The translations under genes were made by a program, and so were the position numbers. From Syntrophales bacterium (lineage in GTDB: Bacteria > Desulfobacterota > Syntrophia > Syntrophales > UBA4778), in NCBI GenBank assembly GCA_028712885.1, contig JAQTPK010000006.1:14273-78272 (forward strand): a stretch of DNA of 64,000 bases, read 5' to 3'. Below the pieces are notes generated by a model. The model was not told the DNA's origin and made no database searches. It worked only from the letters and a program-made list of their open reading frames with translations. Shown here one piece after another: positions 10,378-38,216 of the stretch (positions are counted from its first letter, which is position 1; each line of letters begins with the position of its first letter).

Positions 10378-10389
10378 AAGGCCGGCTTC

Positions 10390-11262: not shown

Positions 11263-11300
11263 GGCGTAAACTGAAAGAGTAAAGTGATGGTGTTTTCGCC

Positions 11301-11333: not shown

Positions 11334-11384
11334 TAAGCACATGCATGTTCCCGCCCTGAGCACCCTTTCCGGTTTTTTTTGAAC

Positions 11385-12488: not shown

Positions 12489-12500
12489 CACAAATGAATA

Positions 12501-12543
12501 CGGCGCGGGGCTCCGTCCCTGATTTCCGGAGCCCCCGCCGTTT
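12501..12543 (+). terminator. Rho-independent terminator after the FN3-malectin gene
   Basis: GC-rich stem 'cggcgcggggctccg' / 'cggagcccccgccg' followed by 'ttt'. Confidence 0.55.
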
Positions 12544-12778
12544 AATCCATACTTCTTCTGCTCGCTTTCTTCCTGCTCCGGCACAATCACAAAGATTATC
12601 GATCAGCCAAGCTTGTTTTGCGAGTTCTTGCTTGTGGCCCCGCGAGGCGCTCGTCTAAGATTAGTCTGTTGAGTCAAGAAAGGACTGATAAAACTTCGGG
12701 AATTGAATTCCGAAGGATAAAAGGCCGGTCCTTCGGATATGTCGTCAGGTCCGGAAGGCCGGAGAAAGGGGAATGTAA

Positions 12779-21841: not shown

Positions 21842-22936
21842 TCATGCAAACGCATACAGAATCCATCCCAGGTGGTAAGGCCTGCATTCTTCCTGGAGGC
21901 GGAAAGAGGATGGGAAAACCCTTCCCGCCCCTGGCAGCCTGGCAAGAGAAAGGGCCGCCTCCAGCATCCGCATTTTTTTCCTTTTATAAATGCTCCTCCA
22001 GACGAGATTAAGCCGGGCGTCGATCATTTCCCGGTCAAGCTCGTTTTCGCCCGTGATCCATATCAGCCCGCGCTCGATTTCCGATTCGAAATTTTCGCCG
22101 GACGCCTTGCCGGCCGCGCACAGAGCCATGGGCGCCATTGCGTCCTGATGAACGGAAAACACCGGATACCTGGAGACGACCCTTCCCGTTCTCATATCGT
22201 AATGCCACCACCATTGGCCTCTCGGCCCCTGGTGGGCGCAGATAGTCCTGGCGCACTTAACCGCGATTTCGACCGCCTCCGCATTGCCCGCTTCCTTTCC
22301 GTACTGCGCGAAGGCGTAAATCGGATAAACCTGATCCGCGAAATTGCCGATCGCGCCCCGGAGCCGGTTCATCAGGCTTCCACCCGTCTGGTGCCCGAAT
22401 ATTCCTTCATTCCCGTAATAGTCCCTCACTTTTCTGAATACCTCATCCATGAGCCCGGTATTGCGGCAGCGGCCGCCCGCGCGGGATGCATATGCGAGTC
22501 CCGTCAGGAACCAGGACATCTCCATCGTAAAAAACTCCCCCGATAAATGGCAGGTCCTCCACACTGTTTCCGGATGAAGGCGCCTGTAGACTTCTCCAAG
22601 CATATCGGGACAGGATTTGGCGCACAGCCAGAGGAGAAGGCCGGCTTCCCCCGTTTCCTCCTTCCTGATCATGGCAGCAAGCCGTGAGACGAAATCGGCC
22701 GGATTCAGGACGGTCTCCATTCCCCTGTCCCGGGCGGCCTGGATACCCAGCAGCGAAATGAGCGTGTATCGCACCGATGCGCCCTCCCTGAACAGTCCCT
22801 CCCTCCCCCGGGCGGCGCGGAAGCAGAACAGGCCCCTTTCCTTATCGTACAGGTCAGTCAATCCATTCAGCGCCAATGTGACGAGATCGCGCTTAAGCTT
22901 TTCAATTTTGAACTCAGCCGCCGGGTTCAGTGCCAT
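21842..22936 (-). CDS. Uncharacterised protein, probable (alpha/alpha)6-toroid fold
   Basis: All-helical repeats with aromatic-rich connecting motifs ('GPRGQWWWHYD..YPVFSVHQDAM'). No catalytic family recognised by eye. Confidence 0.35.
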   Translation of the reverse strand: MALNPAAEFKIEKLKRDLVTLALNGLTDLYDKERGLFCFRAARGREGLFREGASVRYTLISLLGIQAARDRGMETVLNPADFVSRLAAMIRKEETGEAGLLLWLCAKSCPDMLGEVYRRLHPETVWRTCHLSGEFFTMEMSWFLTGLAYASRAGGRCRNTGLMDEVFRKVRDYYGNEGIFGHQTGGSLMNRLRGAIGNFADQVYPIYAFAQYGKEAGNAEAVEIAVKCARTICAHQGPRGQWWWHYDMRTGRVVSRYPVFSVHQDAMAPMALCAAGKASGENFESEIERGLIWITGENELDREMIDARLNLVWRSIYKRKKMRMLEAALSLARLPGAGRVFPSSFRLQEECRPYHLGWILYAFA

Positions 22937-23984
22937 GCTCGCCCTCCATTATTTTTTCTATGGATGTCACGATCTTGCGGAGCGCATCCGTTCTCCGACC
23001 GGGCCGGCCGCCGTCCTTTTTCCGGCGCTGCAGGACTATGCTTGTCTTGACATCCTCCGGATATGCAATAATGTGGAGCCTTCCCTCACGGGAAAGATAA
23101 TCGTCTATTGCTCCCAGGCGGCCCCGGAAAATGCTGTACACCGGAACGCCCAGAGCGGCTGCCTCCCTGTTAATCGTTCCCCCGCCGCTGATTACCAGAT
23201 CGGAATGCCAGATCAGGTTGAGCCCGTTCACTACTTTTTCAGGAATTACGATCCTTCCGTTTTCAATCAGCCGCGTCCACTGCTTCCGGACCGTCTCGTT
23301 CTGTCTCTCGTTTCTGGGAAGGATGATCATCCGGACCTCTTCCGCGCCAAGCCTGCTGATGACTTCCGAAAACAGGATCTCGCTTTCGGGATTGTGATAG
23401 TGCGCTTCCGTAGCCGGCGGGCGGATTGTTGCGACCAGCTCGGCGGCTGATATCCCGAGGTCGCCGAGAATGCCGGAGTCTGATTCGAATTCCGGAACAT
23501 AGACGTCCTCCTTGATCCCCGGGTAGCGGATGATCCGGCTGTTCCTGAAAGGAAGGCTGGAATCCGGAATTACTTCCGGCATGATAATCCAGGAAGGATC
23601 GGCTATTTTCTGAGAGAATTCATAGTCCATGATGAGAACGGACTTTATCCCCTGCAGTCTGGACAGCAGCAGCTGGGATCGCGAGCCGTGCGACACGGCC
23701 AGAACCGGTTTTTCCCGCAGCATCACCGGCGTCAGCTGGACCGCCCGGAAGACCGTTCCCAGGACTTTCATCGCCTTGTTCTTTCCGTAATGGATCCCTA
23801 TCCGCTGGTAGCTCATACCGTAGAGATCCGCCAGCCCGCAGACCTGAAAGCAGTCCCTTGCCGTAATCAGGACGGGGTACCCTTTCTTCCGGAGCTCACG
23901 TATGATGGGGTGGAAAAAAGGGACGTGCGGCGTATTGTCCAGATCAATCCAGATCTTTTTTTTATTCATTTCGTCAAAACGCAT
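22914..23984 (-). CDS. DUF354-family protein (GT-B / UDP-GlcNAc 2-epimerase-like fold)
   Basis: Start at ATG 23984 (MRFDEMNKKKIWIDLDNTPHVPFFHPIIRELRKKGYPVLITARD..), which matches the DUF354 N-terminal signature. Confidence 0.65.
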   Translation of the reverse strand: MRFDEMNKKKIWIDLDNTPHVPFFHPIIRELRKKGYPVLITARDCFQVCGLADLYGMSYQRIGIHYGKNKAMKVLGTVFRAVQLTPVMLREKPVLAVSHGSRSQLLLSRLQGIKSVLIMDYEFSQKIADPSWIIMPEVIPDSSLPFRNSRIIRYPGIKEDVYVPEFESDSGILGDLGISAAELVATIRPPATEAHYHNPESEILFSEVISRLGAEEVRMIILPRNERQNETVRKQWTRLIENGRIVIPEKVVNGLNLIWHSDLVISGGGTINREAAALGVPVYSIFRGRLGAIDDYLSREGRLHIIAYPEDVKTSIVLQRRKKDGGRPGRRTDALRKIVTSIEKIMEGEHGTEPGG

Positions 23985-24015
23985 TCTCTTCACCTTCCGC
24001 GGATCATTGTGACCT

Positions 24016-25071
24016 TCACCCCATATGCCGGTAGAAAGTCCTACCGATCCAGTGCAGAACGGGGACAGGCAGGCAGCGGAGTATCCGGACATAATTTCTT
24101 CGCACCATGTCGGACGATGCGAGGAATTTTCCTCTCCGGAAATCGTATTTAAAATAACGGATCTTCTGCTCCTCCGCGCCCCAGCCGGACTTGAATTGGA
24201 TCAGCCCCGAATTGTCCGGCTCCGTCCTGCCGAAGTGGAACTCTTCATAATCCCTGCCGCTGTACAGCCTGATAGCTTCCCAGATGACCAGGTTATTGGC
24301 CCGAAGGTGCTGATATTTCCGATCCGAGGCGCCGTACTTAAATACGGCGCTTTTTCCAAAGTGGAGAAATACCGCAGCAGCCAACGGTCTGCGTCCACTG
24401 AAAGCCACGATCGTCCGCCCCGAGTTTCCGGCAATAATATGCTCATGCAGTTTCCGGAAAAAAATGAACGGCTGGGGAGGAAGCCCGTGCAGTTTGCGGG
24501 TGAGCGCGTTCAGCCGGCCGAATATCCTGAGTCCCTCCTCAGAATCCGTAATTTTTATCCTGACCCCCTCTTTAATGCTCTTTCGGATATTCCGTTTGAC
24601 CGAGCTGTCGAACCCGGAAAACAGGCCTTCCTCCCCTTTCCGCAGGTCGAGGCTGTGTCCGATGAACTCCGACGAACACGTCTCCGGCAGATATCCGGCT
24701 TCGCCGCGGAATTCCACCGAATTCCAACGGCGGACCCGCCCATGCTCCAGGATTCTGTCCAGCAGATCCCGCCGGCACCCCGCGGAGATGGTCCCGCAGA
24801 AGTCCGAGAACGGCAGCGATACCCCTCTCCTTCCCGTTATCAGGCTCCGGACCTCCATCAAGGGGATCATGACGGAAAAGCCCGCGCCTCCTTCTGCCTG
24901 CACGAAATACTGGGGATCGTAACCGTAAGCCTCGTTCAGCACTCTCGCCCACGACTCGGTGTGAAAAACCGATGAGGACCCGGATTCCAGCAGTCTCCTG
25001 TCCCAATCGGGATAATCCCAGGGGCGGACAACCTGCAGCTCTTCAGGGCTTATGAGCCTCATTCTCGTCAC
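24016..25071 (-). CDS. FemAB-family / Acetyltransf_6-type acyl(aminoacyl)transferase of the type found in PEP-CTERM EPS loci
   Basis: 'SVFHTESWARVLNEAYGY', 'SVKRNIRKSIKEGV', 'KYGASDRKYQHLRANNLVIWEAI' and 'GLIQFKSGWGAEE' are hallmarks of the FemAB-related GNAT pair. Confidence 0.7.
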   Translation of the reverse strand: MTRMRLISPEELQVVRPWDYPDWDRRLLESGSSSVFHTESWARVLNEAYGYDPQYFVQAEGGAGFSVMIPLMEVRSLITGRRGVSLPFSDFCGTISAGCRRDLLDRILEHGRVRRWNSVEFRGEAGYLPETCSSEFIGHSLDLRKGEEGLFSGFDSSVKRNIRKSIKEGVRIKITDSEEGLRIFGRLNALTRKLHGLPPQPFIFFRKLHEHIIAGNSGRTIVAFSGRRPLAAAVFLHFGKSAVFKYGASDRKYQHLRANNLVIWEAIRLYSGRDYEEFHFGRTEPDNSGLIQFKSGWGAEEQKIRYFKYDFRRGKFLASSDMVRRNYVRILRCLPVPVLHWIGRTFYRHMG

Positions 25072-25095: not shown

Positions 25096-25908
25096 TTAAA
25101 CTCCCCGCAGCCTCCTTGCGTAATCCGGCCTCAAAATTCTGATCAGAAGGAGAGTGATCGGGTTCATGCGATAATAGGCCGGCTCGCTCGACCGCCTGCA
25201 TCCCCGGCGCAATTTGAAATCATCCAGGCTGCCTTTACTGCCGGCGATTCCCATAAAGACCAGCTGCGCTCCCCTGCACTCGGCCGCGAATTCCCTGATG
25301 AGATGAAGCGAGTATTCAGGGGCATTGAACCTGAGCCCGGTCGAATTGCTGAATGAAGAAGAGTAATAGATGACATCCTCAACTGAATAGGCGACGTTAA
25401 TGCAGCACAGGATGCCTTCATGGTAAAGACCGAAGACGAGGACTTTGGGGCTTTGCACAAGTACTCCCGCCCATGCCGCAAAGGACTCCTTTTTCTCCCG
25501 CTCGCGCTTCCACCTGTATTGCGTTCTGGCGAAGAACTCCAGGTAGACCGGATGTCCCGCATCGATGAATTCCGCAGGGTCGCTGATCCTCCTTATCTCC
25601 AGGTGTTTTGCCGATTTCCTTATCGCTCTCCTGTACTTGGATGCGATGCTGGATATCGAGTATTCCCCGGTGTTGTCGGTTACGATGAAATTCATTTTCG
25701 AGTTCGCACCCTTTTCTCCGGTTACAAGATGCTGATACCCCGCCAGCACGGATCCGGCAGGGGGGCCGGCCTTCTCCGGCTCCGCTCTGAGAAACAGATG
25801 TACAGGCCGGTAAAAGAAGGGGCGAACCTGCCGCCACCAGATTCCGCCGGAATGCCTGACCCGTGCCCCTGCCTGCTCCTCCAGGGCGGCATGCTCTGCA
25901 ATCGTCAT
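25096..25908 (-). CDS. Hypothetical protein, distant FemAB/GNAT-like acyltransferase fold
   Basis: Start set at ATG 25908 (ATGA overlap with the DegT stop). 'KYRRAIRKSAKHLEI', 'VFGLYHEGILCCINVAY' and 'SLDDFKLRRGC' loosely parallel the neighbouring FemAB-like protein. Confidence 0.35.
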   Translation of the reverse strand: MTIAEHAALEEQAGARVRHSGGIWWRQVRPFFYRPVHLFLRAEPEKAGPPAGSVLAGYQHLVTGEKGANSKMNFIVTDNTGEYSISSIASKYRRAIRKSAKHLEIRRISDPAEFIDAGHPVYLEFFARTQYRWKREREKKESFAAWAGVLVQSPKVLVFGLYHEGILCCINVAYSVEDVIYYSSSFSNSTGLRFNAPEYSLHLIREFAAECRGAQLVFMGIAGSKGSLDDFKLRRGCRRSSEPAYYRMNPITLLLIRILRPDYARRLRGV

Positions 25909-27074
25909 GGCGGGTATGTTCTTGAGCAATTGCCGCTCCCTTCAGTCCCGCTCTCCCGGCCGGACTGCGCCATAGTATGGAACTTGCGAATCTCTTCCGA
26001 CGTGAAGCGGATCTGTTCCGGTTTCAGCTCCGGGTACATCGGCAGCGAAAGCGCTTCCCGCGCGATTTTCTCAGCAACGGGGTAACTGCCCGGACCGAAT
26101 CCGAGGTGCCGGTATGCACTCTGAAGATGAATGGGGACGGGATAGTGGATCCCGCACTGGATCCCCCGGCCGGACAGATATTCCAGAAGTCGGTCGCGGT
26201 TCCCTGACCGGATGCCGAAGATATGAAAAACGTGCTTTCCATATCCGGCTTCTTCCGGCAATGCTACTCCTTCCATCCCTTCGAGGCACTTTCTGTAAAA
26301 CCCCGCTGCCCCTCTGCGCGACTCGTTCCACGCTGCAAGGTGGCCAAGCTTGACGCTGAGAACGGCTCCCTGAATGCCGTCCATGCGGTCGTTCCATCCG
26401 ATGAAGTCGTGGTGATATTTCCGGGGCTGGCCGTGATCCCGCATCATTCGTATTCGCGAGGCCAGTTCCGGATCATCCGTGACGACCGCTCCGGCGTCGC
26501 CAAATGCGCCCAGGTTCTTGCCTGGATAAAAGCTGAAGCATCCGGCGTCCCCGATGGAGCCGGCCTGTCTTCCACGGTATTGAGCGCCGTGCGACTGGCA
26601 CGCGTCCTCCACGACGCGCAAATTCCGGGAGGCGGCGATTTCCATTATCGGGTCCATGTCCGCACACTGACCGTAGAGATGCACCGGGACGACTGCTCTT
26701 GTCCGCGGCGTCAAGGCGCGCTCGATAAGAGCGGCATTCATAGTGAACGTCGTCTCCTCGACGTCGACGAAGACCGGCTGCGCGCCGCACCGGCTGATCG
26801 CCTCCGCGGTGGCGATGAATGTGTTCGGGACGGTTATGACCTCGTCGCCCGGGCCGATGCCCATGGAACACAGCGCCAGCCACAGCGCCGATGTTCCGCT
26901 GCTCACGGCAACGGCATGCCGGCGGCCGCAAAAAAGGGCGAATTCCTCCTCGAAACGCGCCACGTAGGGGCCGCTGATGAAAGCGCATTCCTCGAGAACG
27001 GCGTGGACCGCGGCGTCGATCTCCTCTTTTATGGATCTGTATTGCGCATTCAAGTCCAGGAACGGCACGATCAT
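25905..27074 (-). CDS. DegT/DnrJ/EryC1-family PLP-dependent sugar aminotransferase (WbpE/GnnB-like)
   Basis: 'MIVPFLDLNAQYRSIKEEIDAAV..FISGPYVARFEEEFA..AVAVSSGTSALWLAL..FYPGKNLGAFGDAGAV'. Confidence 0.9.
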   Translation of the reverse strand: MIVPFLDLNAQYRSIKEEIDAAVHAVLEECAFISGPYVARFEEEFALFCGRRHAVAVSSGTSALWLALCSMGIGPGDEVITVPNTFIATAEAISRCGAQPVFVDVEETTFTMNAALIERALTPRTRAVVPVHLYGQCADMDPIMEIAASRNLRVVEDACQSHGAQYRGRQAGSIGDAGCFSFYPGKNLGAFGDAGAVVTDDPELASRIRMMRDHGQPRKYHHDFIGWNDRMDGIQGAVLSVKLGHLAAWNESRRGAAGFYRKCLEGMEGVALPEEAGYGKHVFHIFGIRSGNRDRLLEYLSGRGIQCGIHYPVPIHLQSAYRHLGFGPGSYPVAEKIAREALSLPMYPELKPEQIRFTSEEIRKFHTMAQSGRESGTEGSGNCSRTYPP

Positions 27075-27931
27075 GACCCGTGTAAAGTCTCCTTTTCGAG
27101 CTCTTTTACATCCATGGCGGTTTCCTCCTTTCCCGTGCGGATGCCGGCGATTACGGAAACGCCCGCGTGCACGCGCTGTCCGACCCTGACGCGGATTTCC
27201 GGCGCGAGCCCTCCCGGGATTACAATGTCAACCTGCGAACCGAAGCGGATTATCCCGACCTCCTGTCCGGCGCACAGGAAATCTCCGGGCGTGACATAAG
27301 ATTCAATCCGCCGCACCAGCCGCGAGGCGATATGGATAAGTCCGACCTTTCTTTCGCCGTCCTCGATAATTCCTATCAGGCGCTCGTTCCGCCAGGCGGC
27401 TTCCCTTTTCTTCAGAGAAAGGAATACTCCCGGAATACGCTGAAGATGAACGACCCTTCCGCTGATCGGCGCCCTCGTGACATGCTCGTCAAGAAGGCTC
27501 ATGCCGATGCCGACAAGGTATCCGCCCCTGTCGCCGGCCATGCCCGAAAGAGGGGGAGATAACGGCACGCTCTCCGCGCCTTTGGAGGAAAAAGGGGCTG
27601 TTTCCGGACTGATCGGCTTCAGATATTTGATTGTGCCGTCCGCCGGGGAAACGATCAGATCCCGTCCCGGAGGGGGCCGCCGCTCGGTCCGTCTGTAAAA
27701 ACGCATCAGCAGAGCCGCCGCGGAAACCGCCAGGATCAGAGCCGCATCCAGCAATAGAAAGACCGCCCTGCCGAGGGGATGAACGGCGTCAACAGCATGG
27801 AGCAGTCCGCCGATCACGATTCCCGCAGCGACGGCCCATGCCAGCACCAGCCGCAGATCGAGTTCCCATTTCCAGGCGAGCGGACCCAGCATCGACAACG
27901 AGATAATGCAGCTAATCGCCAAATCCGTCAT
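27071..27931 (-). CDS. Membrane-anchored phosphatidylserine-decarboxylase-family (pyruvoyl) protein
   Basis: Two to three N-terminal TM helices, then 'VSPADG', 'DEHVTRAPISGRV' and the self-cleavage-type 'RFGSQVD'. Start at ATG 27931 (MTDLAISCII). Confidence 0.7.
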   Translation of the reverse strand: MTDLAISCIISLSMLGPLAWKWELDLRLVLAWAVAAGIVIGGLLHAVDAVHPLGRAVFLLLDAALILAVSAAALLMRFYRRTERRPPPGRDLIVSPADGTIKYLKPISPETAPFSSKGAESVPLSPPLSGMAGDRGGYLVGIGMSLLDEHVTRAPISGRVVHLQRIPGVFLSLKKREAAWRNERLIGIIEDGERKVGLIHIASRLVRRIESYVTPGDFLCAGQEVGIIRFGSQVDIVIPGGLAPEIRVRVGQRVHAGVSVIAGIRTGKEETAMDVKELEKETLHGS

Positions 27932-29120
27932 TGCGGGCCCTCGTTTTCTTGTAGAGAAAATACGGAGCGAACAGGAGCTCAATGAGGAAGGGGACCGGGT
28001 CGCCCGGGCGGTAGACCGCCAGTTCCTTTTTCCCCCTCATGGTTTTCAGGTATTCCAGAGGATGCAGGCGACCTTTCCACATCTCGCTCGCCACGATGAG
28101 GGAATCCGTCAATTCCCTGATCCATTTGACGCCGTTTTCGGAGCAGTGCGGCGCCACGGACGCCCCGTTCATGTCGAGGTAGAGCAGGTAAGAAAAATTG
28201 ACGCCCGCCCGCGAACCCAGGGTATGCCATCCCCAGGTGCGGGGATTTATCTCCAGAAGCTTGAATTTTTCTTCCTTCTGATCCCGCATGAACTCGACTT
28301 CACACAGACCGTAATACCCGACCCTCTTCAATACTCGCGTCGCCGGTTCCTCCAGTTCCGGAACTTCGCATGTGTAGGCATATGTAGTGGCGGTGCCGAA
28401 TTCCATGGGATGCTGCCTCGGCCGTTTGGCGACGAGCTTGGCTTTGACCCTTCCCTCGCTGAAAAGGCAGCAGAAGGAAAACAGGTTGTCCGGACACCCC
28501 CTGATGAACTCCTGGATCATGATCTCCGAAGGATCTATGATGGCGGACATCTGCCGGTAACGGCGGATAAGCTCCTGTTTGTTGTCCGCACGAACGGCCT
28601 TGCGCAGCGTATACGGAAAGAAATGGTCCTTGATGGAAGGCTTCAGGACGACGGGGTATTCAAGCTCGAACGCGGCAAGCTCCCGTTCATCTCTGGGGAA
28701 AAGAGTCCGCGGAACGGGTACTCCCGTCAACTCGGCTATTTCGTACGTCAGCCTCTTGTCATACAAGTACTTCGTGATCTCCCATTCCGGTGTTGGAATC
28801 CGGTAATGCTCTCCAAGCTCCTTTCGGCCGCGGGATATTACATGGACCGCCATGTCCAGCGTGGGGAAAAGCACCCAGTCGCGGAGTTTCTCGACTTCAG
28901 CGAGTTGAATCAGAAAGCGATGAAATTCGCCGTTTCCGTTTATGGCGGGACAGCGAAAATATTTCCTGACGAATTTTGAATATCGCGCGATGCAGAAATC
29001 CGGATCTACGATATAAACGGGGATCCCCAGGGACGCAAGGTTTCTTGCTATGCCGAGCCCCTGATAATCTCCGCCGATAATCACAGCTCCGCTGCTCGAG
29101 AACGAAGATGCCGGTTGCAT
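27912..29120 (-). CDS. ATP-grasp superfamily ligase (COG3919-like carboxylate-amine ligase)
   Basis: 'GAVIIGGDYQGLGIARNLASLGIPVYIV' is the pre-ATP-grasp Rossmann segment. 'YPVVLKPS..', 'IMIQEFI.G' and 'GLCEVEFMRD..FKLLEINPR' are ATP-grasp core motifs. Confidence 0.75.
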   Translation of the reverse strand: MQPASSFSSSGAVIIGGDYQGLGIARNLASLGIPVYIVDPDFCIARYSKFVRKYFRCPAINGNGEFHRFLIQLAEVEKLRDWVLFPTLDMAVHVISRGRKELGEHYRIPTPEWEITKYLYDKRLTYEIAELTGVPVPRTLFPRDERELAAFELEYPVVLKPSIKDHFFPYTLRKAVRADNKQELIRRYRQMSAIIDPSEIMIQEFIRGCPDNLFSFCCLFSEGRVKAKLVAKRPRQHPMEFGTATTYAYTCEVPELEEPATRVLKRVGYYGLCEVEFMRDQKEEKFKLLEINPRTWGWHTLGSRAGVNFSYLLYLDMNGASVAPHCSENGVKWIRELTDSLIVASEMWKGRLHPLEYLKTMRGKKELAVYRPGDPVPFLIELLFAPYFLYKKTRARNDGFGD

Positions 29121-30556
29121 GGTCGGGCCTTGATCAGGATTTTGTAGCGGATCTTTTCAAACAGGTTCCGGAAGAACAGATTATTGAAGAACAGTCTTTC
29201 AAACAGACCGACAACAAACAAATTCCTCATGAGGAAACGAATAAGGACGTTTCGTCCGAGCTGTCGTGACACGGACTTTTTTATAGTGTCTTTTTCTATC
29301 TGCTGGCACTTTTTCAGTATCTTCACCCGTTCCGCCGCGGCGATTTCGGGAGTTTCAAAGACCGGAACGGAGCGGTTTTCAGCAACGCTGTTGAGGTAAA
29401 CATCCGGCGGGATAAGGAATAGTTTATGCTCTTCTATGTAATCGTACATCTCCGTTCCCGGATACGGGATGGGATTATTCAGATTCAGCTTCGTCACGGG
29501 GTATTTCTGCGCCAGTCTCAGGCTGTCCTCCACGTCTTCCAGCGTCTCCCGGGGGGTGCCGATCATGAAAAATAGCCGTACATCCATTCCGATTTCACAG
29601 GCGTTGCGGACGGCGTTTTCAATTGTCTCCAGGGTTTCCCCCTTTTTCAGCAGCTTGAGGACACGGTCGTTCCCTCCATCCACCCCGAAGCCGATTTCCT
29701 TCACTCCTGCATCGTACATTCTCTGCAGCAGCTCTCTGTCCACGCGGTCCGCCCTTACGCCGTTGGAACAGCGGAGGAATAGGTCCTTCATCTCCCTGCG
29801 TTCTATTTCATCGCAGAATTCGACCACGCGCGCCCGCTGGAAAGTAAAGTTATCGTCGTCAATCGCGAATTGCCGGATCCCGCGGGAATACCAGTATTCG
29901 ATCTCGTCGACGAAGTTGCCGATGCTGCGTACGCGGTAAATCCTGGCGATCATTCTGTTGGGGCAGAACGTGCAGGCATACATGCACCCCCTGCTGGAGT
30001 GGATCGGGATCTGGCTGGAGTAGTTCGTCAGCTTGAATTTATGGTAACGCGGAAACGCCAGCTCATCGAGATTCATCAGCACAGGCCTGTCGCCGCTGAA
30101 AACGACGTTTCCGTTTTCACGGTAGAGCAGTCCCTGGACGGACCTGACCGGAATATCGCCGCGGCACAGATCAATCACGGTTCTTTCCCCGTCCGCCACG
30201 ACGCCGACGTCGATCTCCGGACATTCTTCGAGGACCCTGTCCTTTAACACCGTGACGTGGTGGCCCCCGGCCACGATGGCTGCGGATGGAAGCAGCTTCC
30301 TTACTCCGGAAATTATCCGGTATGCCTCTTTGTACCCGAGCGAGCTCAAGCTGAAGCCGATCATGTCGGGACGAAAGTCCAGGATCCTCTTCCTCAGGTA
30401 ACGAAACGAATACCCGATCCTCATGTCAACGTACTCGTAATCGACTCCTCCGTCGAAGAGCGCCTGGGCGATGTAGCCGACTCCTGCCGGAATTCTCAAT
30501 CCGCCATAGCGGCTCACAACCGGGGGACTGACGAGAAGAACTCTGTTAAATCGCAT
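29081..30556 (-). CDS. B12-binding-domain radical SAM enzyme (class B)
   Basis: N-terminal cobalamin-binding-like domain ('VLLVSPP..GVGYIAQAL..PDMIGFSL..AIVAGGHHVT'). The CxxxCxxC cluster is 'SSRGCMYACTFCPN'. Confidence 0.8.
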   Translation of the reverse strand: MRFNRVLLVSPPVVSRYGGLRIPAGVGYIAQALFDGGVDYEYVDMRIGYSFRYLRKRILDFRPDMIGFSLSSLGYKEAYRIISGVRKLLPSAAIVAGGHHVTVLKDRVLEECPEIDVGVVADGERTVIDLCRGDIPVRSVQGLLYRENGNVVFSGDRPVLMNLDELAFPRYHKFKLTNYSSQIPIHSSRGCMYACTFCPNRMIARIYRVRSIGNFVDEIEYWYSRGIRQFAIDDDNFTFQRARVVEFCDEIERREMKDLFLRCSNGVRADRVDRELLQRMYDAGVKEIGFGVDGGNDRVLKLLKKGETLETIENAVRNACEIGMDVRLFFMIGTPRETLEDVEDSLRLAQKYPVTKLNLNNPIPYPGTEMYDYIEEHKLFLIPPDVYLNSVAENRSVPVFETPEIAAAERVKILKKCQQIEKDTIKKSVSRQLGRNVLIRFLMRNLFVVGLFERLFFNNLFFRNLFEKIRYKILIKARPCNRHLRSRAAEL

Positions 30557-31025
30557 CTGAAGCTCCTTGTGACGCGGCCGGGGAAACGTCGATTCGCCGC
30601 ACCTGCCGCGCGGGGATTCCCGCCACGACTGTGAAGTCCGGCACGCTCATGGTTACCAGGGAGGCGGCCCCCACAACGGCGCCTCTGCCGATCCGGACGC
30701 CGGGCAGCACGATGCAGCCCGCGCCCAGCCATGCGTCCTCGCCTATTTCGATCGGCGCTCTTACCTCTCCCATCTGCAGTCTGTAGTGCGAAAAATTGGC
30801 TCGTGAAGAAGTGACGAGCATGACCCTGTCGGCAATGGCGACTCTGTCCCCGATCTTTACCATCCCGCGGTCCGCCGGCTCGTCTTTAATAATGAGATCT
30901 TCACCGATGAAAACACGGCTGCCTATCCGGTAGCCTGCCATGGCCAGCAGACCGGCCCGAATACGGTATCCGGGCGCGTGTTTGGCGGCCGTTTTGATGA
31001 TTTTCTTGAAGATTTCATAAAGCAT
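30546..31025 (-). CDS. Left-handed beta-helix (hexapeptide) acetyltransferase, WcaF/LacA-like
   Basis: Start at ATG 31025 (MLYEIFKK..). Hexapeptide turns 'IGSRVFIGEDLII', 'IGDRVAIADRVML', 'IGEDAWLGAGCIVLPGVRIGRGAVVGAASLV'. The 84 upstream track codons are Arg-rich overprint and are rejected. Confidence 0.75.
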   Translation of the reverse strand: MLYEIFKKIIKTAAKHAPGYRIRAGLLAMAGYRIGSRVFIGEDLIIKDEPADRGMVKIGDRVAIADRVMLVTSSRANFSHYRLQMGEVRAPIEIGEDAWLGAGCIVLPGVRIGRGAVVGAASLVTMSVPDFTVVAGIPARQVRRIDVSPAASQGASDAI

Positions 31026-31066
31026 CAGCAGCTGACCCGCACGTCCGTGAGGCGGGCATTTCGCCG

Positions 31067-31594
31067 TCACAAATCCGTCGCCGGCATTTCCTGCATGGAG
31101 GCGGCCGGACGAATCCCCCCCACCGCCGGCCGTAGAAGTCTCGCCGGGTTCCCGGCGAAGATCGACCATTGCGGCACATCTCCGGTGACAACGCTGCCCG
31201 CGCCCACAATGGCGCCTTCCCCGACTGTCACGCCGGCGAGAATGACCGCGCCGGAACCGATGGAAGCCTTCCTGCATATCCGCGTCGGATGAACGACCCA
31301 GTCTTCTTCCGTCTGCAGTATTCCGTCCTGCGTTGTTGCGGACGGATAAATATCGTTGATAAACGTAACGTTATGCCCGACAAAGACCTCGTCCTCTATG
31401 CTGACTCCCTCGCAGATGAATGTATGGCTGGATATCTTGCAGAAGCTGCCTACGGACGCGTTTTTCTGTATTTCGACGAATGCCCCGATTTTGGTGTTGT
31501 CTCCCACGGTACACCCGTAAAGATTGACGTAAGGGGCGATCTTTACGTTTCGGCCGAGCCTGACATCCTCCGCAATGCACCTCTGGTCGCTCAT
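31067..31594 (-). CDS. LbH N-acetyltransferase for an amino sugar (WbpD/QdtC/WxcM-C-like)
   Basis: 'VRLGRNVKIAPYVNLYGCTVGDNTKIGAFVEIQKNASVG..ICEGVSIEDEVFVGHNVTFIND..IGSGAVILAGVTVGEGAIVGAGSVV'. 4-nt overlap with the upstream oxidoreductase gene. Confidence 0.75.
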   Translation of the reverse strand: MSDQRCIAEDVRLGRNVKIAPYVNLYGCTVGDNTKIGAFVEIQKNASVGSFCKISSHTFICEGVSIEDEVFVGHNVTFINDIYPSATTQDGILQTEEDWVVHPTRICRKASIGSGAVILAGVTVGEGAIVGAGSVVTGDVPQWSIFAGNPARLLRPAVGGIRPAASMQEMPATDL

Positions 31595-32601
31595 AAGTAG
31601 ACCATCTCCCCGCGGTTTTTCAGGGATCGGTTTGCGGCCTCAAGCAATTTCACGACTCTCAACCCCGCCTGTCCGTCGTTGATCGGCACTCTGTCCTCCT
31701 TGATGCAATGAACGAAATATTCAGCCTCGATCTTCAGGGCTTCAATGTGGTCTATCTTCGGGACCCACATGTCACCGGACCGGTAACTCACAAGCAGGTC
31801 GTAGATGTTTTTCGTGCAGTTCGTAACTTCCACTCCCTTGTCGTAGATGATGACCTTCTGGTCGGCATCCAGATCGTTCCAGACCAGCATTTTCTTGTCC
31901 CCCCCTATCAGCGTGGTCCTCACCTTGACCGGAGAGAGCCAGTTTACGTTTATGTGCGCGATCAATTTTTCGGGGAAGTAGATCGTAATGTAAGCAACGT
32001 CTTCCAGATCATGATTGAAATGCGCCTGGCCCGTTGCAATCAGCGCGTCCGGATTCTTCATAAGCAGGTAATCCATGATGGAAAGGTCGTGGGGCGCAAG
32101 GTCCCAGACGACATTCACGTCGTGCTGGAACTGGCCGAGATTGACCCTGGTTGAATCAAAATAATAAAGTTCACCCAGAGTCCCGTTCTGGGTGATTATC
32201 TCTTTTATTTTCCTGACTGCGCCGGTGAACAGGAACGTATGGTCCACCATGATCTTCAATTGCCTTTTTTCCGCCGATTCGATGAGCTCCTCCGCCTGGC
32301 TCACCGTGCAGGTGAAGGGTTTTTCCACAAAGACGTGCTTGCCGTTTTCCAGAGCCGACTTCGCTATTTCGAAATGCGTGGCAACGGGCGTAATGACTGC
32401 GACCGCGTCAATATCCGGCGACCGCACTATATCCCGATAATCGGAACAGGTCCGGATGAAGGGATAAGCCCTCTGCGCGCGTTTCCTTGCGTCGGAATTG
32501 AGATCGCTTACGGCTGTCACCCTTGCGCCGTCCGTATCATTGATGTTCCTGACGACTTTCGGGCCCCAATATCCGTATCCGACCACGCCGATCCGGACCA
32601 T
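31591..32601 (-). CDS. Gfo/Idh/MocA-family NDP-sugar oxidoreductase (WbpB/GnnA-like)
   Basis: Start at ATG 32601 (MVRIGVVGYGYWGPKVV..). 'HVFVEKPF' and 'MVDHTFLF' are typical of the family. Confidence 0.8.
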   Translation of the reverse strand: MVRIGVVGYGYWGPKVVRNINDTDGARVTAVSDLNSDARKRAQRAYPFIRTCSDYRDIVRSPDIDAVAVITPVATHFEIAKSALENGKHVFVEKPFTCTVSQAEELIESAEKRQLKIMVDHTFLFTGAVRKIKEIITQNGTLGELYYFDSTRVNLGQFQHDVNVVWDLAPHDLSIMDYLLMKNPDALIATGQAHFNHDLEDVAYITIYFPEKLIAHINVNWLSPVKVRTTLIGGDKKMLVWNDLDADQKVIIYDKGVEVTNCTKNIYDLLVSYRSGDMWVPKIDHIEALKIEAEYFVHCIKEDRVPINDGQAGLRVVKLLEAANRSLKNRGEMVYL

Positions 32602-32940
32602 AACCGCCTCGTTCCTTTTCAGCACTGCAGATTTTTGAAATAAAACAGGTAAAAATGAATTCAGGGTGACATGTTTTGCGACAGGACGGAAGAGCTGCGC
32701 TTCCGTCAGATTGAACATTATCTGTTTATTACTTAAGGCGGAACATAGCTATCCCTTCCCTCCTGATTTTGAATATCGAAATTCCTTAATTCAGCCCGCA
32801 AGAACCCCTAAGTAGAACCTAAGTTTCCGGTTCACAGTTGGCAGCTCAAGCATCGTGAGGTTTAATGCGCAAGGCGTGATGCGTAAGGGGTTTTCGCTGA
32901 ACACCTGACGATTACACCGTACGCCTTGCGGGAACTGTGA

Positions 32941-34074
32941 CTAGTACGCTCCTTTTCCCGAAAGAACGGCTCCCGGCGTCGCCAGCACGATCCTGATATC
33001 CATCCAGAGGGACCAGTCTCTCGCGTAGCGGATATCCAGCCGGACCATGCTGTTAAAATCCGTGCGGCTTCTTCCCTTTACCTGCCACAGCCCTGTTATG
33101 CCCGGCTTCATTTCCAGGATTCTCTCCCGGTGCCACAAGTCATAATCAGCGCATTCGTAAGGTATCGGCGGCCTCGGCCCCACAAGCGACATATCTCCCG
33201 TGAGGACATTAATGAGCTGCGGGAGCTCATCCAGGCTGGTCCTGCGGAGAAGCCTCCCTACCGGGGTGACCCGGCTGTCTTCCGTCAGCTTGTATATGCG
33301 GGGCGCTGCGTCATCCTGAGATTCCAGAGTGCCGCGAATAAATTTGCGGATATAGGACCGGTGTGCTTCCGCATTTGAGCCTGCATACATCGATCGGAAT
33401 TTCAGAAATACGAAACGGCGCCCGAAGCGGCCGATTCTCTCCTGGCGGAAGAGCACCGGTCCCTTCGAGTCCGCCTTGATGGCTGCAGCAATGACCAGGA
33501 AAAGGGGAAAGGTCAGGGCCAATCCGGCAGCGCTGCCGATGATATCCAGCATGCGCTTGACAGCCAGGGGTATCGTCCTTGCGCGGTTTCTGATCAGCCC
33601 CGGATACAGTGCAGGGTCAATCTGTATTCCGTCCTTTTTTTTTTCTTCCGGATACACATGGAAAGTTATATCGAGGAGTCCTGAGTCTTCCGGGCCCAGG
33701 GTCATGCTGAAACGGCTTGATAACTTGCGCAGAATGCCGTTGCGCGCCGCTTCGCCGGTCTGTTCCATTTCCGTGAAAATCACCCCGATGGAAGAGCCGC
33801 TCCGGTACCAGCCTTTCAGATCGATTTCCCTGGTGCAGGTGAGCAGATCGTGCGCGACCGGGCGCAAAACATCCCTGCCGCGGGCTTTCAGAATGCGATC
33901 GAGGTTCAGGATCATCAGCAGAAAAGGCTTTCCGGAGCGTTCCGTCCTCCTTCTCTCCAGATAAAGCCTCTCCTGGAAGAAATCCTGCACATACAGGCCC
34001 GTATCGTAATCTATCAGGAAATGTGCGGAGAAATGCCCGGGCAAAGACTTCTTCGAGTCCGCTCTGATTCTCAT
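32941..34074 (-). CDS. Polyprenyl-phosphate sugar-phosphate transferase (bacterial sugar transferase) with N-terminal degenerate GGDEF-like domain
   Basis: C-terminal '[55 protein letters not shown]' is the PGT domain. It is preceded by one hydrophobic helix (aa ~175-200). N-terminal '[38 protein letters not shown]' is GGDEF-like. Confidence 0.85.
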
Positions 34075-34100: not shown

Positions 34101-34826
34101 TTAAATCCTCCGGTAAATGAATTCCGGAATATGATACTTCCTCTTGTTGAGGACCATTCCCAGCACTTTGCCCTGGGAGCGCAGTATCTTCTCCTTCGTG
34201 TTTTCCGCAACGGGCCAGCGGGTCCGGTCGGCTTCCACCACCAGCACCGTGCCGTCCATAAAGCGGGAGAGCATTACACTCCCAGGCGACCCGCCTGCGG
34301 GCGGTGAATCGACCAGCACATAATCGAACCGCTGCTTAAGTTCCATCCACAGTTTCTCATACAGCAGAAGATCAAGATTCCTGGCGGCTGCAGCCGGGTT
34401 CTTTGAAATCACCGCCAGGGACAGATTCTTTTCCGGGGTGGCGTAGATCGCGCTTTCGACGGGGACACCGTCGCGAAAACTCTCCTCCAGGCCATTCTCG
34501 GCGCCGATTTTGAAATAGCGATGCTGGCCGGGATTTTTCCTGTCCTCGTCCACAAGAAGTACGGATCTGGACATTCTGCCGGCCACGGTCACGGCAAAAA
34601 GACGGGCGAGAGTGGAGGTCCCCTCCCCCGCGCGGGATCCTATAAACTGCACCGTTTTGCCCGCCGTACCCGGCAGGATGGATTCCAGCGTCTGATAAAG
34701 GCAGTCCATCTCACCTTCGACGCCGGGCATCTCCCTTTTAGGCGCGACGCTCTCAGGCTGCTGATCCATGCTTTTCTGCTTTTGAGCCTGCTCCAGGGCT
34801 TCGTAAATCTTGCTCATAATTTTCAC
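34101..34826 (-). CDS. BY-kinase/MinD-like P-loop protein of the PCP module; Walker A Lys replaced by Thr
   Basis: 'VQFIGSRAGEGTSTLARLFA' (Walker A with T70), 'VLLVDEDRKNP' (A'), 'DYVLVDSPP' (B). No C-terminal Tyr cluster. 4-nt overlap with the upstream ATPase gene. Confidence 0.65.
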   Translation of the reverse strand: MKIMSKIYEALEQAQKQKSMDQQPESVAPKREMPGVEGEMDCLYQTLESILPGTAGKTVQFIGSRAGEGTSTLARLFAVTVAGRMSRSVLLVDEDRKNPGQHRYFKIGAENGLEESFRDGVPVESAIYATPEKNLSLAVISKNPAAAARNLDLLLYEKLWMELKQRFDYVLVDSPPAGGSPGSVMLSRFMDGTVLVVEADRTRWPVAENTKEKILRSQGKVLGMVLNKRKYHIPEFIYRRI

Positions 34827-36124
34827 CTCGGTCTGGTCGGTTTGCTGCCTTTGCTGCCGGAATCAAGTTCAGGAAATATTATCTCGTCTCCGACATAGAT
34901 CCTATGTATGTTCTTTATGGACGGGTTCTCTTTCTTGACGTTTTCCATGAGCCTGAAGTCGGTAAAGCCGTAGATTTTCCGGGTCAATGTCGACAGGTTG
35001 TCGCCTTTCTTCACGAGCCGGTTGACGGGATATTTCCCCGGTTTGACGTGCGTGGCCGCAGTCCCTGCGCCGGGGGCGGCGGCTCCCGAGGAGACGGAAG
35101 CGACGGGGGAGACGGCGGCGCCGGGGGGCGCGGTCGACTCTTCTTTTTCCTCTGCGCTTACCGGAGCCTGATGATGAGTTGCTTCAACCTGCGCCGTCTT
35201 GTTTTCTTCTCCGCGATTTCCGATTAAATGCAGATCGCCGGCGGCGAACCATAAGATCGGCACGGCGGCGGCAAGAGCCCCCGCGGCATAGCCCCATCTG
35301 AATGATGCTTCTCTCTTTTTTCCTTTCAGGTCGGAAATGACCTCGCTTGCTGTTTTCGCCGAGACGGTCTTCTTCTGCCGCCCGAATGCCGTAATGAGAG
35401 CGTTATCGCAGATGATGTTGATTTTCCTTGGAACTCCCTCCGCCTCTTTGATTATTTTTCGAACAGCCCATCCGGAAAATATTGCTGCCGATTCCGCGCC
35501 GGCCTTTTGCAGCCGGTGCCGGATATACGCGGCGCTTTCCGCCGTCGTCAGGGGAAGGATGACGGAGCGGATTGCAATCCTTTGATTGATCTGCCTCAGC
35601 GCGTGCTTGGAGAGCATTTCCTCGAACTCAGGCTGCCCGATCAGGACAATCTGGATAAGCTTTTCCTTGGCCGTTTCCAGATTGGACAGAAGCCTTAAAT
35701 TCTCCAGGGTAAGAACGGGTATGTTCTGCGCTTCATCTATGACCAGGACGATGTTGCGGTTTTTCTCGTACTGCCCGATCAGGACCTGGTGCAGCCTGCC
35801 CACCATCTCGAATACATCGTTTGTCTTCACGTCTGCATCGAGCTCCTGCAGAACGGTGTGGAGGAGGCTCCGGAAAGACAGGTTGGGGTTGAAGATATAG
35901 ACGGCGTGCGTGCTCCGGCGGTCAACCGTTTCCAGGTAAGAGCGCAGGACGGTGGTCTTCCCGACTCCTACGGCGCCCGTGACGGCCACAAAGCCTTTTT
36001 TTTTCTCTATCCCGTAAATAATGGAAGCGAGCGCCTCCTTGTGGCTGGGACTGAGAAAAAGAAATTCCGGATCGGGGGTGATATGGAAGGGCTCTTTTTT
36101 AAGCTGAAAGTATTCCAGGTACAT
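34823..36124 (-). CDS. ExeA/GspA-like AAA ATPase with TM segment and C-terminal LysM domain (secretion ATPase type of PEP-CTERM EPS loci)
   Basis: 'YLEYFQLKKEPFHITPDPEFLFLSPSHKEAL..GFVAVTGAVGVGKTTVLRSYL' and 'VLVIDEAQN'. TM helix 'GYAAGALAAAVPILWFAA'. LysM-like 'VKKGDNLSTLTRKIYG..IHRIYVGDEIIFP'. Confidence 0.75.
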   Translation of the reverse strand: MYLEYFQLKKEPFHITPDPEFLFLSPSHKEALASIIYGIEKKKGFVAVTGAVGVGKTTVLRSYLETVDRRSTHAVYIFNPNLSFRSLLHTVLQELDADVKTNDVFEMVGRLHQVLIGQYEKNRNIVLVIDEAQNIPVLTLENLRLLSNLETAKEKLIQIVLIGQPEFEEMLSKHALRQINQRIAIRSVILPLTTAESAAYIRHRLQKAGAESAAIFSGWAVRKIIKEAEGVPRKINIICDNALITAFGRQKKTVSAKTASEVISDLKGKKREASFRWGYAAGALAAAVPILWFAAGDLHLIGNRGEENKTAQVEATHHQAPVSAEEKEESTAPPGAAVSPVASVSSGAAAPGAGTAATHVKPGKYPVNRLVKKGDNLSTLTRKIYGFTDFRLMENVKKENPSIKNIHRIYVGDEIIFPELDSGSKGSKPTRPR

Positions 36125-36133
36125 GGCTCCGCA

Positions 36134-37513: not shown

Positions 37514-37526
37514 GTAATCACCTCTC

Positions 37527-38216
37527 TCAGTCCACCGTGTAGGCGAAGCCGAACGGCACCGGGATATTCCTGCGGATATACTGGTCAACCCAGACGTTGA
37601 CCTCCGATATCGGCGATCTCGGCACGTATACGATATCGAACGGCATCAGCAGAACGTCCTGCGACAGATCCGATCCGCTGAAAACTCTCTCGAGGTCCAC
37701 GGTAAAAATGAGCGGTTTCCTCTTCTCTCCCTTGCGGATAATGATCACTTCCTGAGTTCTGGCGCTCTCCATCAGCCCGCCCGCTTCCGCAACCGACTGC
37801 AGGACCGTCAGGGGTCCTGAGAGGCTGACGACCCCAGGACGGTGGACTTCGCCTCCGACATGAACGCGATGGGTTCCGAACGTGCGGACGATGACGGTAA
37901 TCCGCGGCTCTCTCAGTTCTTTTCCGTACTGCTGCTCCAGAACGCGGGAAAGCTCGGACGGAGTCGATTCCGAGGCCGTTATTTCAGGGGCAAGCTGGAG
38001 CGAGATCCGGCCGTCCGGACGCACTATGACCTGCTCATTGAGTTCCGGACTGTTGTAGAACTTTATATCGAGCGTATCGCCCGGCTGGATGCGGTATTCG
38101 GTCTGGGGAAAGGCGGGAGACCGGATATCCGAGACGTTTACCGGTGAAGGGTATTTAACGACGGGAGCGCACGAAACCAGGGCGAGAAGCGTCAGGATGA
38201 CTGCTGCTGTCTTCAT
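37527..38216 (-). CDS. Outer-membrane polysaccharide export protein (Wza/OPX family, short form), lipoprotein
   Basis: Lipobox 'LALVSCAP'. 'YRIQPGDTLDIKFYNSPELN..VRPDGRISLQL' is the Poly_export motif, followed by a SLBB-like 'HVGGEVHRPGVVSL'. 'gaggag' RBS. Confidence 0.85.
   Translation of the reverse strand: MKTAAVILTLLALVSCAPVVKYPSPVNVSDIRSPAFPQTEYRIQPGDTLDIKFYNSPELNEQVIVRPDGRISLQLAPEITASESTPSELSRVLEQQYGKELREPRITVIVRTFGTHRVHVGGEVHRPGVVSLSGPLTVLQSVAEAGGLMESARTQEVIIIRKGEKRKPLIFTVDLERVFSGSDLSQDVLLMPFDIVYVPRSPISEVNVWVDQYIRRNIPVPFGFAYTVD

Follow-up and report, generated by a model that had tools for sequence, protein, structure and literature searches.

This analysis concerns two overlapping genes in a 64,000-nucleotide stretch of contig JAQTPK010000006.1 from a Syntrophales bacterium (assembly GCA_028712885.1, positions 14,273 to 78,272 of the forward strand; the whole stretch is referred to as the window, and coordinates are window positions unless a locus or accession is given). 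The upstream gene (27912–29120, minus strand) encodes an ATP-grasp carboxylate-amine ligase of 402 residues starting from ATG 29120, and the downstream gene (27071–27931, minus strand) encodes a pyruvoyl decarboxylase-like protein of 286 residues from the phosphatidylserine decarboxylase (PSD) family. They lie in one long polysaccharide operon in which the minus strand carries every gene from ~14.3 to 37.6 kb. The last 20 nt of the ATP-grasp gene overlap the start of the PSD-like gene, whose stop in turn overlaps the start of the following DegT gene by 4 nt in an ATGA junction. An alternative start of the ATP-grasp gene at GTG 29084 would yield 390 residues and a GTGA overlap with the gene upstream. 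The open frame of the PSD-like gene reaches upstream to TTG 27982; because independent gene calls on 100%-identical metagenome contigs use ATG 27931, the latter is the likely true start.

An initial interpretation of the window from its letters and open reading frames (ORFs; hereafter the sequence-only reading) had assigned the downstream protein to the PSD family on the basis of characteristic motifs and had predicted N-terminal transmembrane helices, and both assignments held. The translation of ORF 27071–27982 (minus strand) contains VSPADG, DEHVTRAPISG and RFGSQVD, and the protein matches PF02666 (PS_Dcarbxylase) over profile positions 3–197 of 198 (E 1.3e-37; 129.9 bits versus a cut-off of 22). 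Codon inspection confirmed that Ser249, counted from the TTG, is TCG at 27236–27238, which is Ser232 counted from the ATG. Codon position and conservation predict self-cleavage between Gly231 and Ser232 (FGS/QVD; 27236–27241, minus strand), by which Ser232 would become the pyruvoyl group. D98 (SPADG), H150 (LDEHV), G231, and S232 are invariant in an alignment of 35 homologues, while position 148 is Asp in the window protein and Asp or Asn in the clade to which it belongs (Asp in 78%). The window residues D98, D148/H150, and S232 correspond to D90, D142/H144, and S254 of Escherichia coli PSD, in which the free α-amine of the substrate forms a Schiff base with the pyruvoyl group and His144 faces the leaving carboxylate (PMC7952604). 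The region of the E. coli phosphate-binding residues Y137, S166, and V167 is not confidently alignable with the short-type enzymes. Hydropathy and an AlphaFold2 (AF2) model agree on three N-terminal hydrophobic helices (residues 2–21, 26–50, and 55–78; 27698–27928, minus strand), over which the predicted local distance difference test score (pLDDT) is 88–97. The loop between helices 1 and 2 holds K21-W22, invariant in the same alignment, and helix 3 is followed by an Arg-rich stretch, RFYRRTERR.

The AF2 model as a whole (pLDDT 87.4; predicted template modeling (TM) score 0.81) has E. coli PSD as its best Foldseek matches in the PDB (7cnx, 7cnw, and 6l06; E 3e-6, TM-score ~0.5 over 194 columns), with the tryptophan decarboxylase PsiD and an arginine decarboxylase from a fungus ranking next, while a sequence search against PDB chains returned nothing at E ≤ 1. 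We conclude that, to judge from its sequence and predicted fold, the protein belongs to the PSD superfamily and has predicted-competent catalytic residues. It scored below the cut-off of all NCBIfam equivalog models for PSD and archaetidylserine decarboxylase (ASD), including NF003685 (138.2 versus 183), TIGR00164 (131.9 versus 230), and NF038088 (93.5 versus 240), and our NCBIfam scan found no curated family model for the pairing of PSD-like and ATP-grasp proteins.

The identification of the upstream protein as an ATP-grasp ligase was likewise borne out, as it passed two Pfam cut-offs (ATPgrasp_Ter, PF15632, 30.3 versus 29.1; CPSase_L_D2, PF02786, 29.9 versus 19.8) and its AF2 model (pLDDT 89.2) had as top Foldseek matches the L-amino-acid ligase 3vot, PurK, biotin carboxylases, RizA, and PylC, with E-values of 1e-17 to 1e-15 for L-amino-acid ligases, PurK, and biotin carboxylases. 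Homologues carry the Joint Genome Institute (JGI) name "predicted ATP-grasp superfamily ATP-dependent carboligase", which we take to be the name of COG3919, and the JGI source label "D-aspartate ligase" is attached to at least 12 of 120 homologues of the window protein. Moreover, the family profile matched an ATP-grasp protein encoded next to asnB in Lactobacillus crispatus (probability 98.9%, E 2e-17, ~22% identity); this Lactobacillus pair, itself of putative function, probably resembles the Asl/AsnH cross-bridge system. A role of the PSD-like/ATP-grasp pair in defense was dropped because the PADLOC models match neither protein.

The sequence-only reading had called for a phylogenetic and gene-neighborhood analysis and had regarded close homologues next to pssA as evidence against a glycan role. 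We therefore compared the neighborhoods of PSD-like relatives in two sets of genomes. In nine metagenome or metagenome-assembled genome (MAG) loci with PSD-like relatives of 42–70% identity, the ATP-grasp gene was invariably located immediately upstream, mostly overlapping, and within a polysaccharide locus (9/9). A scan of one genome per GTDB species added 80 further loci, which fell into two clearly separate groups when scored by tblastn and by a CDP-alcohol phosphatidyltransferase motif. Here, relatives with a PSD tblastn score of at least 111 bits, together with one at 108 bits (L085), had the ATP-grasp gene beside the PSD gene except on truncated contigs and no pssA-type ORF, whereas the remaining relatives, at 108 bits or less, had no ATP-grasp gene beside the PSD gene. 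After removal of duplicates, 60 clade loci stood against 26 loci of canonical short-type PSDs. An ATP-grasp gene was adjacent and on the same strand in 57 of the 60 clade loci (upstream in 55) and in none of the 26 canonical loci; conversely, an ORF with the CDP-alcohol phosphatidyltransferase motif was found in none of the 60 clade loci and lay directly downstream in 22 of the 26 canonical ones. All clade neighborhoods examined are polysaccharide or glycan loci. The clade is distributed over more than 10 bacterial phyla (Planctomycetota, Desulfobacterota, Acidobacteriota, Chloroflexota, Actinomycetota, Bacteroidota, Verrucomicrobiota, Spirochaetota, Omnitrophota, Cloacimonadota, and others), and the same pair is present in a MAG of the Asgard archaeal group Hodarchaeota. 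A profile search of 1.84 billion representatives yielded ~110 full-length clade clusters among the best 150 matches; in the plasmid collection, no clade PSD was found, all 55 matches being canonical and aligning only from residue 78 onward.

The two groups also differ in sequence. Directly after the pyruvoyl-forming Ser, 97% of clade sequences have Gln where 92% of the pssA-linked PSDs have Arg (60 versus 26 sequences), clade members have IASRLVRRI and GxFxSL where canonical enzymes have IAGxxARRI and GxFxxA, and they carry a clade-specific insertion of ~15–20 residues with conserved Lys, Leu, and Glu as well as an extra N-terminal helix followed by the conserved Lys-Trp motif. Conserved clade-specific changes sit next to the active site. 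In a neighbor-joining tree of the catalytic domain, from which sequences with less than 84% coverage were excluded, the 58 ATP-grasp-linked sequences were separated exactly from the 25 pssA-linked sequences.

Natural fusions link the two activities physically. Three proteins of 673–696 residues join a PSD-like domain to an ATP-grasp domain (L036, 10001–12022 of an Acidobacteriota MAG locus; P0259; and P0265), and in single cases the PSD-like domain is fused to a formyltransferase (P0299) or a class I methyltransferase (P0305). We note that L036 has an extra, separate ATP-grasp gene immediately upstream, giving this locus two ligase paralogues. Being joined to an ATP-dependent enzyme puts the decarboxylase domain on the cytoplasmic side, in agreement with the Arg-rich segment after helix 3, and fusion to amine-modifying enzymes implies that the decarboxylation product would keep a free amine. 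Because of the near-strict adjacency of the two genes in the clade, the restriction of pssA linkage to canonical PSDs, the fusions, and the polysaccharide context, the comparative sequence evidence supports that the PSD-like protein and the ATP-grasp ligase constitute a functional pair for glycan modification and not for phospholipid synthesis. By the same type of evidence, namely equivalog score, pssA linkage, and signature residues, the PSD-like protein is not an ordinary phosphatidylserine decarboxylase.

In the window, the pair is surrounded by genes for an amino-sugar pathway. A Gfo/Idh/MocA oxidoreductase (31591–32718, minus strand; PF01408), an LbH N-acetyltransferase of the NeuD/PglB/WbpD-like type (31067–31594, minus strand; Hexapep E 1.7e-22, with the NeuD_NnaD subfamily model below its cut-off), and a DegT/DnrJ/EryC1 sugar aminotransferase (25905–27074, minus strand; PF01041 E 1.4e-119) are encoded together and, by their Pfam domains, make up the WbpB/WbpE/WbpD-type set for a 3-acetamido sugar. 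The best named relative of the oxidoreductase is UDP-GlcNAc 3-dehydrogenase (NF040723, 176 bits versus a cut-off of 450); its gene probably starts near 32601, as homologues have 334–349 residues. The regiochemistry of the pathway is inferred, the named equivalogs all being below their cut-offs. The sequence-only reading had described two genes inserted with overlapping stop and start codons between the DegT gene and the oxidoreductase and N-acetyltransferase genes; the overlaps were confirmed, but the insertion comprises four genes, the pair being preceded by a second hexapeptide-repeat acetyltransferase (30546–31058, minus strand; Hexapep match, and called as a 170-residue gene on identical contigs) and a B12-binding radical S-adenosylmethionine (SAM) enzyme (29081–30556, minus strand; PF02310 and PF04055). 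Downstream of the DegT gene are a FemAB/GNAT (Acetyltransf_6)-like gene pair (24016–25071 and 25096–25929, minus strand; FemAB and Acetyltransf_6 matches, pepcterm_femAB below cut-off) and a DUF354 gene of the GT-B or UDP-GlcNAc 2-epimerase-like type (22914–24092, minus strand; PF04007 E 2e-39 and a weak Epimerase_2 match). Directly upstream of the cassette lies a gene for a priming polyprenyl-phosphate sugar-phosphate transferase (32941–34074, minus strand; PF02397 E 5e-64, TIGR03025 279 bits versus a cut-off of 296). Consistent with the sequence-only reading, which had noted that no phosphatidylserine synthase is nearby, the 64 kb contain no CDP-alcohol phosphatidyltransferase motif, no duplicated HKD motif of the phospholipase D type, and no second PSD. 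The window also contains no UGDH-family motif or match indicative of a UDP-sugar 6-dehydrogenase, and no carboxylate-generating gene was identified in it.

Partner genes of the pair elsewhere are also carbohydrate-related. When the 132 ORFs lying closest to the pair were classified across 35 diverse loci, DUF354 was the commonest family (16) and the commonest immediate neighbor in other phyla, followed by GT4 glycosyltransferases (15), polysaccharide deacetylases (6), B12-binding radical SAM enzymes (5), and formyl-, acetyl-, methyl-, and FemAB-type transferases and AsnB-type amidotransferases (3 each). A homologue of the window's B12-binding radical SAM enzyme scoring at least 250 bits occurs within 10 kb in 14 of the 60 clade loci and is thus a frequent third partner. 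A hexapeptide acetyltransferase homologue is found beside the pair in L008, L010, L020, and L022, and FemAB-like genes recur beside it, e.g., in L010, L014, L018, L030, and L091. The Gfo/LbH/DegT trio is found with the pair chiefly among the closest relatives and also in the Hodarchaeota locus, and only 6 of 54 clade loci show a UDP-sugar 6-dehydrogenase motif.

Based on this information, our working hypothesis is that the two enzymes are a tailoring module of a polysaccharide pathway, in which an amino acid would be ligated through its side chain, α-decarboxylated, and capped on the new amine; judging from sequence evidence, we would give this hypothesis an even chance of being right. Specifically, the Gfo/Idh/MocA and DegT enzymes would generate a 3-amino sugar, probably UDP-GlcNAc3N, whose sugar the priming transferase encoded just upstream might first load onto the polyprenyl-phosphate carrier. 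The ATP-grasp enzyme would then form an acyl phosphate and join an α-amino acid to the sugar via the side chain of the amino acid, most likely by coupling the sugar amine with the β-carboxyl of Asp or the γ-carboxyl of Glu, in the way D-aspartate ligase modifies peptidoglycan precursors. This would leave the α-NH3+ and α-COO− free, and the resulting -CH2-CH(NH3+)-COO− head would resemble the head group of phosphatidylserine. Next, the PSD-like protein, self-cleaved at Gly231-Ser232 to expose an N-terminal pyruvoyl group and anchored through its three helices on the cytoplasmic side of the membrane, would form a Schiff base with the free α-amine and remove the α-carboxylate, giving an amide of the β-alanyl or 4-aminobutanoyl type. 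The new primary amine would remain cationic or be capped, with the second hexapeptide acetyltransferase and the FemAB-like transferases as candidates in the window and formyl- or methyltransferases in other genomes; the B12-binding radical SAM enzyme may methylate the side chain. Extended to the whole clade, this reading describes a widespread and hitherto unrecognized PSD-family branch, numbering around 100 clusters (50% identity) across more than 10 bacterial phyla as well as Asgard archaea, that would use a carbohydrate-bound amino acid instead of a phospholipid as its substrate and, together with its dedicated ATP-grasp ligase, leave decarboxylated side chains on lipid- or nucleotide-linked glycan intermediates on the inner side of the membrane; for this broader proposition, we see the prospects of its being true and of its being false as balanced.

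We favor ligation before decarboxylation because the conserved membrane helices and Lys-Trp motif argue for a membrane-proximal substrate, because the amine-capping fusions and neighbors imply that the amine persists in the product, because amine-generating DegT enzymes and deacetylases are common partners while uronate-forming enzymes are not, and, by analogy, because D-aspartate ligase provides a precedent. Also, glycans with aspart-4-yl-acylated amino sugars are known (PMC10609480). The reverse order, in which the PSD-like enzyme first acts on a small free or phosphorylated amino acid (such as phosphoserine, Ser, Asp, Orn, or Lys) and the ligase then couples the amine so formed to a carboxylate on the glycan, follows the logic of Cj1436 and Cj1438 of Campylobacter jejuni and is chemically sound; two PSD-fold enzymes, PsiD and the fungal arginine decarboxylase, use free amino acids as substrates, and glycans are known in which uronic acids form amides with amines and amino acids (PMC10609480). 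We nevertheless consider it unlikely: three hydrophobic helices and a Lys-Trp motif would be purposeless for a soluble substrate, a UDP-sugar 6-dehydrogenase is missing from the window and rare in the clade loci, and the formyl- and methyltransferase fusions and capping neighbors imply an amine that survives rather than one consumed in an amide. The uronate requirement also weighs on the scheme of the sequence-only reading, in which a uronic acid would carry serine, amide-linked via its α-amine, until decarboxylation on the lipid-linked repeat unit leaves an ethanolamine amide. The gene pairing and membrane anchoring fit this scheme, and ethanolamine and serinol amides of glucuronic acid occur in C. 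jejuni. However, because the pyruvoyl Schiff base needs a free α-amine and an N-acylated serine has none, we exclude such an amide as a substrate, and we give the scheme as a whole little more than a token chance. Thus, a glycan-dedicated ligase and PSD-like protein survive from that reading, while its serine chemistry does not and its uronic-acid acceptor finds no support; an amino acid attached by its side chain, with both α-NH2 and α-COOH free, is a possible substrate that fits both enzymes.

A side chain might also be joined to an acceptor other than an amine, the hydroxyl of Ser or Thr forming an ester or the side-chain amine of Lys, Orn, or diaminobutyrate an amide with a pyruvyl, lactyl, or uronic carboxylate, so that decarboxylation would yield an aminoethyl ester or diamine amide. 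Such chemistry suits both enzymes, many clade loci are without DegT, ornithine and lysine amides occur in known glycans (PMC10609480), and ATP-grasp enzymes that form esters exist, e.g., VanA, a weak match in this analysis. Given that no carboxylate-generating gene was identified in the window and that amino-sugar genes enclose the pair in its closest relatives, we regard this variant as quite improbable. Finally, the protein could be a genuine phosphatidylserine or archaetidylserine decarboxylase that supplies phosphatidylethanolamine to the membrane, to a phosphoethanolamine donor, or to a lipid anchor of the exosortase type and lies in this operon only incidentally. All short-type PSD catalytic motifs are kept, the locus has XrtA/PEP-CTERM-like genes for an ATPase, a chain-length determinant, and a FemAB protein, and NCBIfam includes an archaeosortase-linked ASD family (NF038088). 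Against this stand the lack of pssA linkage, the scores below every PSD/ASD equivalog cut-off, the strict coupling and fusion to ATP-grasp, and the replacement of Arg by Gln after the pyruvoyl-forming Ser; moreover, XrtA-type genes accompany only the closest relatives, with the ATPase in 6 of 60 clade loci. We therefore hold a phospholipid role to be very improbable, and we rejected the exosortase/archaeosortase lipid-anchor role because of the low NF038088 score and this restricted distribution of XrtA-type genes.

Several points weigh against the side-chain ligation and decarboxylation hypothesis. The amino acid and the acceptor are guesses, the order of the steps is inferred, and sequence alone does not tell a nucleotide-sugar substrate from a lipid-linked one. 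About one-third of the clade loci have neither a DegT nor a deacetylase gene within 10 kb; in these, the acceptor may be different or encoded elsewhere. The kinship of the ligase to a proven D-aspartate ligase would run through a source label and a probable Lactobacillus orthologue. Lastly, exact monophyly of the clade received moderate support, with a bootstrap of only 59/100 by neighbor-joining, falling to 1/100 when the badly extracted, low-coverage canonical sequence L089 was included. In the literature searched, we found no paper describing a pairing of PSD-family and ATP-grasp proteins in a glycan context; an apparent match to a Legionella PSD and a lipopolysaccharide cluster was discarded as an unrelated BLAST table entry.

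Two of the surveyed loci deserve separate mention. In the Hodarchaeota MAG GCA_048887365.1 (L091), genes for a FemAB-like protein, the ATP-grasp ligase, the PSD-like protein, and a formyltransferase follow each other in a row, with GT4, Gfo/Idh/MocA, and DegT genes downstream and carbamoyltransferase, SxtJ-like, and sulfotransferase genes upstream. Saccharicrinis sp. FJH62 (L045; NZ_JBHJHQ010000001.1, 3989–14131) is a cultured Bacteroidota isolate carrying the pair, in the order PGA_cap (CapA-like), a 589-residue protein, a RimK-like ATP-grasp, GT4, the ATP-grasp ligase, the PSD-like protein, DUF354, an epimerase/dehydratase, and UDP-GlcNAc 2-epimerase; the CapA-like and RimK-like genes hint at glutamate chemistry, and the isolate could serve as a host for experiments.

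Other features of the window were recorded in their own right. At its N-terminus, the priming transferase has a domain that weakly matches GGDEF (E 7.7e-4, residues 21–129), and in a locus with 70% identity (L001) the corresponding region was called as two genes, a faint GGDEF protein of 162 residues and a Bac_transf protein of 203 residues; this could be a domain that senses cyclic di-GMP, or a degenerate cyclase domain, regulating initiation. Genes of the XrtA/PEP-CTERM-associated type are located at 34823–37588 and 24016–25071 (both minus strand) and encode an ATPase (262 bits versus 324), a chain-length determinant, and a FemAB protein; each scored below its NCBIfam cut-off, and no exosortase gene was present among the window ORFs scanned. 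A second glycan module (46204–53031, minus strand) contains a TIGR04295-family B12-binding radical SAM protein (51751–53031; 578 bits versus a cut-off of 400), a GT4 gene (50590–51744), and three paralogous PF13524 "Glyco_trans_1_2" proteins (46204–47268, 47316–48656, and 49450–50583). A 698-residue protein (41736–43832, minus strand) has as its sole family match a C-terminal Acetyltransf_6 domain (FemAB-like GNAT; E 5e-39), its N-terminal ~500 residues being without any. Outside of the operon, on the plus strand, a 900-residue protein fuses GH57 to a GT5/GT4-like starch-synthase domain (669–3371), and a 571-residue protein fuses a HAD phosphatase (Hydrolase_3) to a HerA/AAA-type NTPase domain (61728–63443).

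If the side-chain ligation and decarboxylation hypothesis is correct, pyruvoyl-dependent decarboxylation would extend to glycan-bound substrates and would provide a new route to cationic or N-capped (β-alanyl, aminobutanoyl, or aminoalkyl) decorations of cell-surface polysaccharides. It would also account for amine-bearing and N-acyl-aminoacyl sugar decorations in some bacteria and archaea; decorations of this kind affect surface charge, recognition by phages and the immune system, and the properties of the biofilm matrix. Because PSD-family proteins are automatically annotated as phospholipid enzymes, the clade would be mis-annotated as "phosphatidylserine decarboxylase" in hundreds of genomes. 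What would be new is that one clade of a well-known enzyme family, partnered by its own ligase, has been retargeted to a putative glycan-bound substrate. With two genes, the module is compact and, with three-enzyme variants available as fusions, handy for in vitro reconstitution and glycoengineering.

Compared with known systems, the PSD-like protein shares with short-type PSD/ASD enzymes (PF02666; TIGR00164/PRK05305 type) the fold, the motifs FxRDPxR, SPADG, LDVHV(N/T)R, NER, and FGS, the predicted Gly-Ser cleavage to pyruvoyl, and N-terminal membrane helices followed by a cytoplasmic catalytic domain, and differs in its extra helix with Lys-Trp, its insertion, its Gln in place of Arg, and its almost constant association with ATP-grasp in glycan loci, never with pssA. 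PsiD and the arginine decarboxylase of Aspergillus oryzae are also PSD-fold pyruvoyl enzymes with non-phospholipid substrates and matched the AF2 model at E-values of 1e-5 to 1e-3, showing that the PSD family can be retargeted; however, they are fungal, are larger (chains of ~350–380 residues in the solved structures), act on free amino acids, and have 16–18% identity to the window protein. The amino-sugar cassette resembles WbpB/WbpE/WbpD (WlbA/C/B) in that Gfo/Idh/MocA, DegT, and LbH genes stand in one cassette downstream of a priming transferase, and differs by the four inserted genes, by equivalog scores below cut-off, and by the lack of a detectable WbpA-type 6-dehydrogenase in the window.

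The proposed ligation is most readily compared with Aslfm and AsnH of the Lys-D-Asp type peptidoglycan pathway, in which an ATP-grasp enzyme also joins a side-chain carboxyl to an amine on a nucleotide-sugar-linked precursor, leaving the α head free, and the free α-carboxylate is then neutralized; there, the acceptor is the ε-amine of Lys in the peptide stem and neutralization occurs by amidation, whereas here we propose decarboxylation. By analogy, this suggests a common theme in which the α-carboxylate of an appended Asp or Glu is neutralized, by amidation in some systems and by decarboxylation here. Plasmid pBb323S2a of Bradyrhizobium barranii (L090; NZ_CP088278.1, 139421–158539) encodes a homologue of the ATP-grasp ligase (39.5% identity) in a locus that likewise has Gfo, DegT, and sugar transferase genes; in this case, the ATP-grasp gene overlaps an upstream gene for a NAD(P)/FAD-dependent (flavin) oxidoreductase, and two asnB-type amidotransferase genes flank it in place of a PSD-like gene, which suggests a different way of tailoring a similar appended amino acid. 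In C. jejuni HS:2, a decarboxylase and an ATP-grasp ligase also place an amino-acid-derived amine on a capsule sugar. Cj1436 is a soluble pyridoxal phosphate-dependent decarboxylase that acts on phosphoserine before ligation, and Cj1438 is an ATP-grasp amidoligase whose acceptor is the carboxyl of glucuronate, whereas the window encodes a membrane-bound decarboxylase of the pyruvoyl PSD type and no evident UGDH/uronate pathway, so that the likeness is one of analogy only. We suggest that the PSD-like/ATP-grasp pair is a member of neither the Aslfm/AsnH nor the C. jejuni system, although by analogy it may work like them.

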